DNA from: Enterobacteria phage GEC-3S
Sequence record: HE978309
Length of the DNA: 64,000 bases
Reading direction: 5' to 3' (one strand)
Each line of letters begins with the position of its first letter. Within the stretch, counting starts at the first letter, position 1. Below are positions 18,222 through 18,857 of the stretch, piece after piece. A program made the translations under genes and the position numbers. A model generated the notes under the pieces. The model was given only the letters and a program-made list of their open reading frames with translations, did not search any database and had not been told where the DNA came from.

Positions 18222-18412
18222 AGATGACTCCAATATAATCGACATTTACATTTAGGGCAATGCGGTTCTTTAATATAATACCCGTCTGTCTTTGGAACAC
18301 TAACAGGAGCGGTTTTTATATTGTATTCAGTGAAACAACGAAAACAAGTTACGTTTTCTACAGACTGACGTTTCACCCAATCACCGGAATATAGGTCATT
18401 TTTATTTGTCAT
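18218..18412 (-). CDS. small zinc-ribbon-like protein
   Basis: track ORF begins with TTG; first ATG used; CFRCF...CPKCKC. Confidence 0.4.
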   Translation of the reverse strand: MTNKNDLYSGDWVKRQSVENVTCFRCFTEYNIKTAPVSVPKTDGYYIKEPHCPKCKCRLYWSHL

Positions 18413-18857
18413 ATTCAACCACCACAATGTTAATGTCTGGAGTAGCAATATTAATGATCTCTTCTACACATTCCCACTCAAGGCCACCGATACCGCAACC
18501 GATTTTAGGAATATAGAAAGGCTGTATAGCACCCTCAAAAACATCATTGAGAGACTCAAATCCTTTCAGGATAGCACCATATTCAGCATTTGGACCCGGT
18601 CGGAATTGGGTATAGAGATTCACCCCGCACCAGTTATAACCATTAACTTGATGCGTCCAGACACTAAACCCACCCAGCTTTTCGACCTTACCGCGAGAAG
18701 TTTGCTTGTCAATCTCTAACGCTTGTGGGAACTCTTTCGCGATCTTCGCAGCAATACCAGCGCCCATAGTATGAAAACAATTACAACCATGAATTAAATG
18801 ACCGTTTCCTTGTTTAAACAGGGCGATGAGATCGCCCTTTACAGTATCAATAATCAT
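18402..18857 (-). CDS. macro-domain protein (ADP-ribose binding or hydrolysing)
   Basis: GDL...HGCNCFHTMGAGIA and IPKIGCGIGG resemble the macro-domain N/G-rich loops; GAGAGGT before ATG. Confidence 0.6.
   Translation of the reverse strand: MIIDTVKGDLIALFKQGNGHLIHGCNCFHTMGAGIAAKIAKEFPQALEIDKQTSRGKVEKLGGFSVWTHQVNGYNWCGVNLYTQFRPGPNAEYGAILKGFESLNDVFEGAIQPFYIPKIGCGIGGLEWECVEEIINIATPDINIVVVEYDK

Follow-up and report, generated by a model that had tools for sequence, protein, structure and literature searches.

The tk.4 product of Enterobacteria phage GEC-3S is an ALC1-like macrodomain protein and a probable lysine-independent eraser of DarT2 thymidine adducts

A 64,000-nucleotide stretch of Enterobacteria phage GEC-3S (sequence record HE978309; hereafter the window) contains a small gene, tk.4, whose product had been predicted from the DNA letters to be a macro-domain protein. 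The locus raises the question of which ADP-ribosylated substrate such a phage protein would serve and by what chemistry. The open reading frame (ORF) is present exactly where the original prediction had placed it (positions 18402–18857), on the minus strand with an ATG start codon. Its 151-residue product contains the predicted motifs GD (residues 8–9), HGCNCFHTMGAGIA (residues 23–36) and IPKIGCGIGG (residues 116–125). The analysis described here identifies the tk.4 product as the ortholog of T4 Tk.4, recently renamed AdfM. Comparison with characterized macrodomains makes it likely that Tk.4 acts as a DNA ADP-ribosyl glycohydrolase and removes DarT2-made thymidine adducts by a lysine-independent chemistry similar to that of the Streptomyces macrodomain SCO6735. 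Both the gene and its domain were already on record, as was, since late 2025, the anti-DarTG2 function of the T4 ortholog. The present work places Tk.4 mechanistically with the Gln-type, SCO6735-like macrodomains and not with DarG, in a lineage apart from that of the AdfM protein of phage PhiKZ.

The macro-domain assignment is borne out by both the sequence profile and the fold. In a profile search, Pfam PF01661 (Macro) matches the tk.4 product with 29.9 bits (gathering cut-off 22) and an E value of 6e-7 over the entire profile (1–118/118), and this is the sole macro-domain profile match in the window. The AlphaFold2 model of the protein, with a predicted local distance difference test score of 97.2, shows a three-layer α/β/α macro fold. 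The best Foldseek match of the model is human TARG1/OARD1 (PDB 4J5R/4J5S; E value of 4e-11, 28–29% identity). The ADP-ribose-binding-loop features KGD (residues 7–9), MGAG (residues 31–34) and GCG (residues 120–122) align with those of TARG1 and are invariant or nearly invariant in the family. The nearest structural and sequence neighbours are all ALC1-like proteins (TARG1, DarG, SCO6735 and Poa1p), which stand clearly above the members of other macrodomain classes. The window protein belongs to the ALC1-like class.

The 3.5-kb region around tk.4 exhibits 98–99% identity to RB49-like phages (Krischvirus, Straboviridae), including kaaroe, RB49, Phi1, JSE and ∼50 more. In the RefSeq annotation of RB49, the ORF is listed as gene tk.4 with the product name 'phosphatase' and the note 'contains A1pp phosphatase motif', in which A1pp is an older name of the macro domain. 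The gene order regB-vs.1-vs-tk.4-small ORFs-tk-rI is identical across the RB49, RB14 and T4 annotations. The window protein and T4 Tk.4 display 44% sequence identity (E value of 3e-45) with 150 of the 151 residues aligned, and a tblastn search of the phage collection located one Tk.4-type place per record. The window gene is assigned as the ortholog of T4 tk.4 because of this full-length identity, the shared gene order and the single copy. Both proteins are encoded at the same vs-to-tk position, belong to a similar length class (151 residues in the window versus 155 in T4) and carry the identical signature HGCNC...D...NLYTQ...G-x-G, but 56% of their residues are unlike.

The function of the T4 ortholog has been addressed by genetics. 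Transposon sequencing of T4 identified tk.4 as the sole gene that becomes important on a DarTG2-expressing host, and a clean tk.4 deletion sensitized the phage to DarTG2; the gene was renamed adfM for 'anti-DarT factor Macrodomain' (bioRxiv 10.1101/2025.11.20.689424). DarT2 targets thymidine in single-stranded DNA, and ADP-ribosylated DNA is not replicable. Within the TNTC motif, it is the second T that carries the modification (PMC13309987). Through orthology, the T4 phenotype, in which tk.4 is essential only on the DarTG2 host and its knockout is sensitized, supports the original suggestion that the protein reverses an ADP-ribosylation-based host defence. The evidence points to DNA bearing DarT2-made thymidine-linked ADP-ribose, rather than protein, as the substrate. 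A second suggestion, that the protein tunes ADP-ribosylation by the phage itself, gained no support from an ADP-ribosyltransferase (ART) gene beside tk.4 or from genetic evidence. No ART, DarT or NADAR gene was found beside tk.4, where the neighbours are vs and small zinc-binding proteins, or elsewhere in the window. This makes the tk.4 product an orphan, in keeping with a counter-defence enzyme whose target is a host-made adduct.

Residue conservation was counted in 258 homologs drawn from two large protein searches, and residue equivalences were drawn from sequence and profile alignments made with a family hidden Markov model (HMM; hmmalign), hmmsearch and BLASTP. A plain MAFFT alignment of seven references was discarded in favour of the family-HMM alignment because the unequal loop that follows the catalytic strand caused the strand to be misplaced in SCO6735 and Bt_1257. 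N26 and N80 are invariant (258/258 each), and Q84 (254/258), H23 (249/258) and the G120 and G122 residues (≥255/258) are nearly so. Q84 falls in the column where DarG (K80), TARG1 (K84) and PhiKZ AdfM have their catalytic lysine and SCO6735 has Gln85. This placement agrees among the profile alignment to TARG1 and Bt_1257, hmmalign and BLASTP, in which NLYTQF lies opposite SCO6735 NMIGQH; T4-type Tk.4 carries NLYTQF as well. N26 aligns with SCO6735 N27 and PhiKZ AdfM N23, and H23 aligns with SCO6735 H24. G120 and G122 align with SCO6735 G126 and G128, and G124 is found in the column of the TARG1 catalytic residue D125. The equivalents of the SCO6735 residues H24, N27, N81, Q85, G126 and G128 are all kept in the window protein.

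The Gln/Asn pair places Tk.4 next to a Gln-type group of ALC1-like macrodomains. SCO6735 of Streptomyces coelicolor (PDB 5E3B) and Bt_1257 (PDB 2FG1/2AFC) lack the Lys/Asp dyad and carry a glutamine (Gln85) instead (PMC9411070), and both combine this Gln at the catalytic position with a loop-1 Asn in the same manner as Q84 and N26 of Tk.4. SCO6735, which exhibits 27% identity to the window protein over 154 residues (48 bits), outpaces DarG and TARG1 in clearing DarT-made thymidine-linked ADP-ribose and also rescues DarT toxicity (PMC9411070). Its Q85A and Q85E mutants are inactive, and its N27S mutant is nearly so. The mechanism proposed for SCO6735 is water-mediated, with Asn27 locking Gln85 and Gln85 positioning the distal ribose, and reversal of thymidine ADP-ribosylation has been proposed as a unifying ALC1-like activity (PMC9411070). 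DarG and TARG1, the latter of which frees DNA of thymidine-linked ADP-ribose, require Lys80 and Lys84 (with Asp125), respectively, and the K80A and K84A mutants fail to rescue DarT toxicity (PMC8501950). In the window protein, DarG Lys80 (PDB 5M3I, 5M31 and 7OMU) is replaced by Gln84, and Q84 and G124 are found instead of the TARG1 dyad. Moreover, the single-domain tk.4 product has neither the C-terminal DarT-binding domain of DarG nor an adjacent darT gene. An interpretation of the lysine loss as the mark of an inactive reader domain or of a non-DNA function was dropped because SCO6735, in which the same lysine is likewise replaced by glutamine, acts strongly on DarT adducts.

In the mechanism proposed from these comparisons, the tk.4 product would function as a free-standing, 'orphan antitoxin-like' macro enzyme that is probably made early. 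Infection would unleash host DarT2, which would ADP-ribosylate thymidines at TNTC sites in single-stranded phage DNA and block replication. Tk.4 would most likely hold the ADP-ribose moiety in the macro-domain cleft and hydrolyse the ribose-thymine bond, by which the DNA would be restored. Gln84, probably fixed by Asn26, would position the distal ribose, and water would perform the hydrolysis with no catalytic lysine.

The name AdfM has also been given to a PhiKZ protein, gp104 (Cell Reports 2026), which strips DarT2 adducts off an oligonucleotide in vitro, has reduced activity as the N23A mutant and protects against DarTG2 (PMC13309987). PhiKZ gp104 is a phage single macrodomain whose size and acidity resemble those of the window protein, but it keeps the DarG lysine (FPTK) and exhibits 26% identity to the window protein over 129 residues (32 bits). 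PhiKZ gp104 is imported into the phage nucleus, whereas T4-type phages have no such nucleus. On the DarG models of PADLOC and NCBIfam, PhiKZ gp104 scores 133 and 138 bits, respectively, versus 53 and 50.5 bits for the window protein, 36 and 30 bits for T4 Tk.4 and 34.5 and 28.6 bits for SCO6735. The NCBIfam score of the window protein comes from positions 2–141 of the 338-position DarG equivalog profile (NF048014) and falls below its cut-off of 250 bits. Because the DarG model scores and the identities differ, the two proteins are classified as separate lineages, with PhiKZ AdfM as a DarG-derived orphan macrodomain and Tk.4/AdfM as a separate Gln-type branch. The existence of a Gln-type and a Lys-type AdfM lineage would therefore mean that phages recruited thymidine-ADP-ribose erasers at least twice.

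The PhiKZ paper describes a macrodomain anti-DarT factor as previously unreported (PMC13309987), and the T4 and PhiKZ studies are therefore unconnected. The two studies, neither of which cites the other, arrived separately at one name for non-orthologous phage macrodomains (Gln-type T4 Tk.4 and Lys-type, DarG-like PhiKZ gp104). Results on the T4/RB49-type AdfM and on PhiKZ AdfM should accordingly not be carried over uncritically between the lineages. Of 50,697 phage records, 2,733 contain the Tk.4 type and 276, about tenfold fewer, the PhiKZ type; the in vitro activity comes from the rarer PhiKZ type, and the case for the commoner Tk.4 type rests on genetics. The phage records with the Tk.4 type include T4-like, rV5-like, Felix-O1-like, Ackermannviridae-like and jumbo phages and others. 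In a global protein library clustered at 50% identity, the Tk.4 profile matches 1,362 clusters at E ≤ 1e-30 and 18,267 clusters at E ≤ 1e-3. Like SCO6735, a bacterial member from Pelagimonas stands alone, surrounded by housekeeping genes and without a DarT in its vicinity.

Domain fusions provide a further view of the family. Three of ten longer family members examined fuse a macro domain bearing the complete HGNCDNYTQGG signature to NADAR, and DUF4326 is present in two of the ten. NADAR enzymes reverse DarT1-made guanine-linked ADP-ribosylation, which is the basis of AdfN, the product of T4 gene 30.3. AdfN represents an analogous orphan-antitoxin strategy but is directed against DarTG1, has an unrelated fold and is specific to the guanine adduct. 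A macro-NADAR fusion would be expected if the Tk.4-type macro domain handles the thymidine adduct. Metagenomic macro-NADAR fusions with the full Gln signature, with or without DUF4326, are exemplified by P0178 (L004 6001–7419), P0190 and P0242, each of which may erase both thymidine- and guanine-linked ADP-ribosylation of DNA. The P0178 contig is ORFan-rich and virus-like and also encodes DnaJ and DUF4116 proteins.

Several points weigh against the assignment of Tk.4 as a DNA glycohydrolase with SCO6735-like chemistry. The support from T4 is genetic only, and its authors state that enzymatic removal of ADP-ribose from DNA 'seems likely' (bioRxiv 10.1101/2025.11.20.689424). A literature search found no paper that pairs Krischvirus with DarTG. 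The DNA-positioning lysines of SCO6735 are absent from the window protein, in which K34 is replaced by A33 and K89 has no equivalent. The window protein also lacks the 'mobile loop' after the catalytic Gln, which is 5–6 residues longer in SCO6735 and Bt_1257 than in the Tk.4 profile, exceeds that of DarG and TARG1 by 5 residues and defines that subclass, and it is acidic, with an isoelectric point of 5.3 versus 9.7 for SCO6735. On the DarG models, its 50–53 bits compare with 133–138 bits for PhiKZ AdfM. The near-invariant residues G24, C27, D50 and Y82 of the Tk.4 family have no counterpart in SCO6735, so that either the reaction or the set of substrates may not be the same. SCO6735 can, in addition, inhibit DarT through binding without catalysis (PMC9411070), so protection may not be purely enzymatic. 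Acidity itself was no longer counted against DNA binding, given that PhiKZ AdfM, a proven DNA de-ADP-ribosylase, is equally acidic.

The inhibitory binding of SCO6735 leads to an alternative in which Tk.4 protects mainly by binding, either by sequestering or occluding the toxin or by shielding ADP-ribosylated DNA, with no hydrolysis of the adduct. Although catalytically dead, the SCO6735 mutant Q85A remains a stronger in vitro inhibitor of DarT than DarG or TARG1 (PMC9411070), the other anti-DarT factors AdfA and AdfB are pure binders, and the T4 genetics fit binding and catalysis alike. However, the N26, Q84, H23 and N80 residues and the Gly loops are 96–100% conserved across the 258 diverse homologs, which come from phages of many hosts. 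Such near-absolute conservation of catalytic residues would be expected of an enzyme that acts on a universal adduct and not of a binder that co-evolves with one toxin. The missing DarT-binding domain also argues against binding, and this alternative is given very little probability. A dependence on ADP-ribosylated proteins or RNA as the main substrates, whether marks made by the phage's own ARTs or by other host ART defences, with the DarTG2 effect as a side activity, is likewise considered highly improbable. No ART gene lies near tk.4, the NADAR fusion partners point to DNA adducts, and T4 tk.4 is non-essential except on DarTG2, even though T4 was screened against only a handful of defence systems (bioRxiv 10.1101/2025.11.20.689424). 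In another report, the mRNA-ADP-ribosylating CmdTAC system is still robust against T-even phages that carry tk.4 (PMC11618068). What speaks for protein or RNA substrates is that SCO6735 and TARG1 also remove Glu/Asp-linked ADP-ribose from proteins (PMC9411070) and that T4-type phages encode the ARTs Alt, ModA and ModB (PMC9503650).

The legacy 'A1pp phosphatase' annotation would instead suggest that Tk.4 processes small soluble ADP-ribose derivatives, such as ADP-ribose-1''-phosphate, O-acetyl-ADP-ribose or ADP-ribose-derived immune signals. The 'phosphatase' label is merely a historical name for the macro domain. Yeast Poa1p, a small-molecule phosphatase, is structurally close and shares the HxCNC loop, but it has a Ser at the Q84-equivalent position and lacks N80. 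At the columns of the residues mutated in the Poa1p structures PDB 6LFS, 6LFT and 6LFU (H23, S30 and F152), the window protein contains H23, T30 and G124, respectively. The one experimental phenotype in the family, that of T4, is specific to a DNA-modifying toxin, and the Gln/Asn pair is the same as that of DNA-active SCO6735 (PMC9411070). A small-molecule substrate is a slight prospect, and erasure of the DarT2 thymidine adduct by Tk.4 is retained as the probable function.

The family-specific residues allow a broader version of this function. D50 and Y82 are each conserved in 257 of the 258 homologs. Column 50 is occupied elsewhere by aromatic residues, in SCO6735, Bt_1257, DarG and PhiKZ AdfM as well as in Poa1p, where it is Tyr. 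Column 82 contains Ile or Pro in the other references (aliphatic or Pro) and a gap in PhiKZ AdfM. D50 and Y82 may represent a compensatory swap for an aromatic/aliphatic pair in or near the active site. An apparent sharing of D50 with Poa1p in one pairwise alignment was not reproduced by hmmalign and is not claimed. It is conceivable, albeit rather unlikely, that the Tk.4 family constitutes a third mechanistic ALC1-like branch, neither DarG-type (Lys) nor SCO6735-type (Gln plus a long basic loop), with substrates beyond DarT2 adducts. Those substrates may include other base- or protein-linked ADP-ribose marks or ADP-ribose-derived immune signals. If so, the Tk.4-type macrodomains, at their frequency among the phage records, would be a broad-spectrum counter-defence enzyme.

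The tk.4 gene is part of a tightly packed phage operon (Table 1). A 15-nt gap (18858–18872), which holds the Shine-Dalgarno sequence, separates the vs stop codon (18873–18875) from the tk.4 ATG, and the 3' end of tk.4 shares 11 nt with the next small ORF. The two small zinc-binding ORFs downstream are probably co-transcribed with tk.4. A sigma-70 consensus scan of the region yielded 28 sites versus 18.1 expected by chance; the promoter-like sites fit early tk.4 expression weakly, as consensus matches little above chance. The vs protein has no match in Pfam; in the T4 transposon study that found tk.4, no gene was more depleted than vs in minimal medium (bioRxiv 10.1101/2025.11.20.689424). In vs.1, which is annotated only as a hypothetical protein, the N-terminus ahead of the SLT domain is hydrophobic and signal-like.

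Table 1. Location of tk.4, its signature codons and other features in the window
Feature	Position	Strand	Description
tk.4 / adfM coding sequence	18402..18857	-	151 residues and stop; single-domain macro-domain protein of the ALC1-like (TARG1/DarG/SCO6735) class
H23-G34 codons (HGCNCFHTMGAG)	18756..18791	-	First substrate-binding/catalytic loop, from family conservation and HMM-anchored alignment
D50 codon	18708..18710	-	Family-specific
N80-L-Y82-T83-Q84 codons	18606..18620	-	Family signature strand; Y82 codon at 18612..18614
P117-G125 codons (PKIGCGIGG)	18483..18509	-	Diphosphate-binding loop
Shine-Dalgarno GAGAGG	18866..18871	-	8 nt 5' of the tk.4 ATG (18857-18855); read from sequence
Candidate early promoter TTGACT-17-TATTAT	19865..19893	-	Upstream of vs.1-vs-tk.4; consensus match alone
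Second promoter-like site TTGACA-17-TATGAT	19195-19223	-	Inside vs; consensus match alone
Phage zinc binding domain ORF	18003..18245	-	PF23895, E value of 9e-34; downstream of tk.4
Phage zinc binding domain ORF	18218..18412	-	PF23903, E value of 1e-23; overlaps the tk.4 stop and ORF 18003..18245
vs	18873..19232	-	Valyl-tRNA synthetase modifier; immediately 5' of tk.4
vs.1	19240..19830	-	Lytic transglycosylase SLT domain, PF01464, E value of 1e-5
nrdC.11	21196..21894	-	RlaP, 'RNA repair pathway DNA polymerase beta family' nucleotidyltransferase, PF10127, E value of 3e-14
vs.6	21981..22397	-	Glycyl-radical domain, PF01228, E value of 1.5e-16
M15 peptidase	23081..23470	-	Probable endolysin
Candidate dmd homolog	approx. 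28160..28363	-	Antitoxin versus RnlA/LsoA
Acb1 anti-CBASS protein	29090..29560	-	PF23474, E value of 1.5e-51

Together with tk.4, the gene for the Acb1 protein shows that the early region carries several counter-defence genes. The RB49 equivalent of Acb1 (57B) is called 'RNA ligase' in RefSeq, which looks like a mis-annotation. The candidate dmd homolog was placed by coordinate offset from the RB49 annotation. The vs.6 product resembles a 'spare part' for a glycyl-radical enzyme, and the anaerobic ribonucleotide reductase genes nrdD and nrdG are located upstream in the window.
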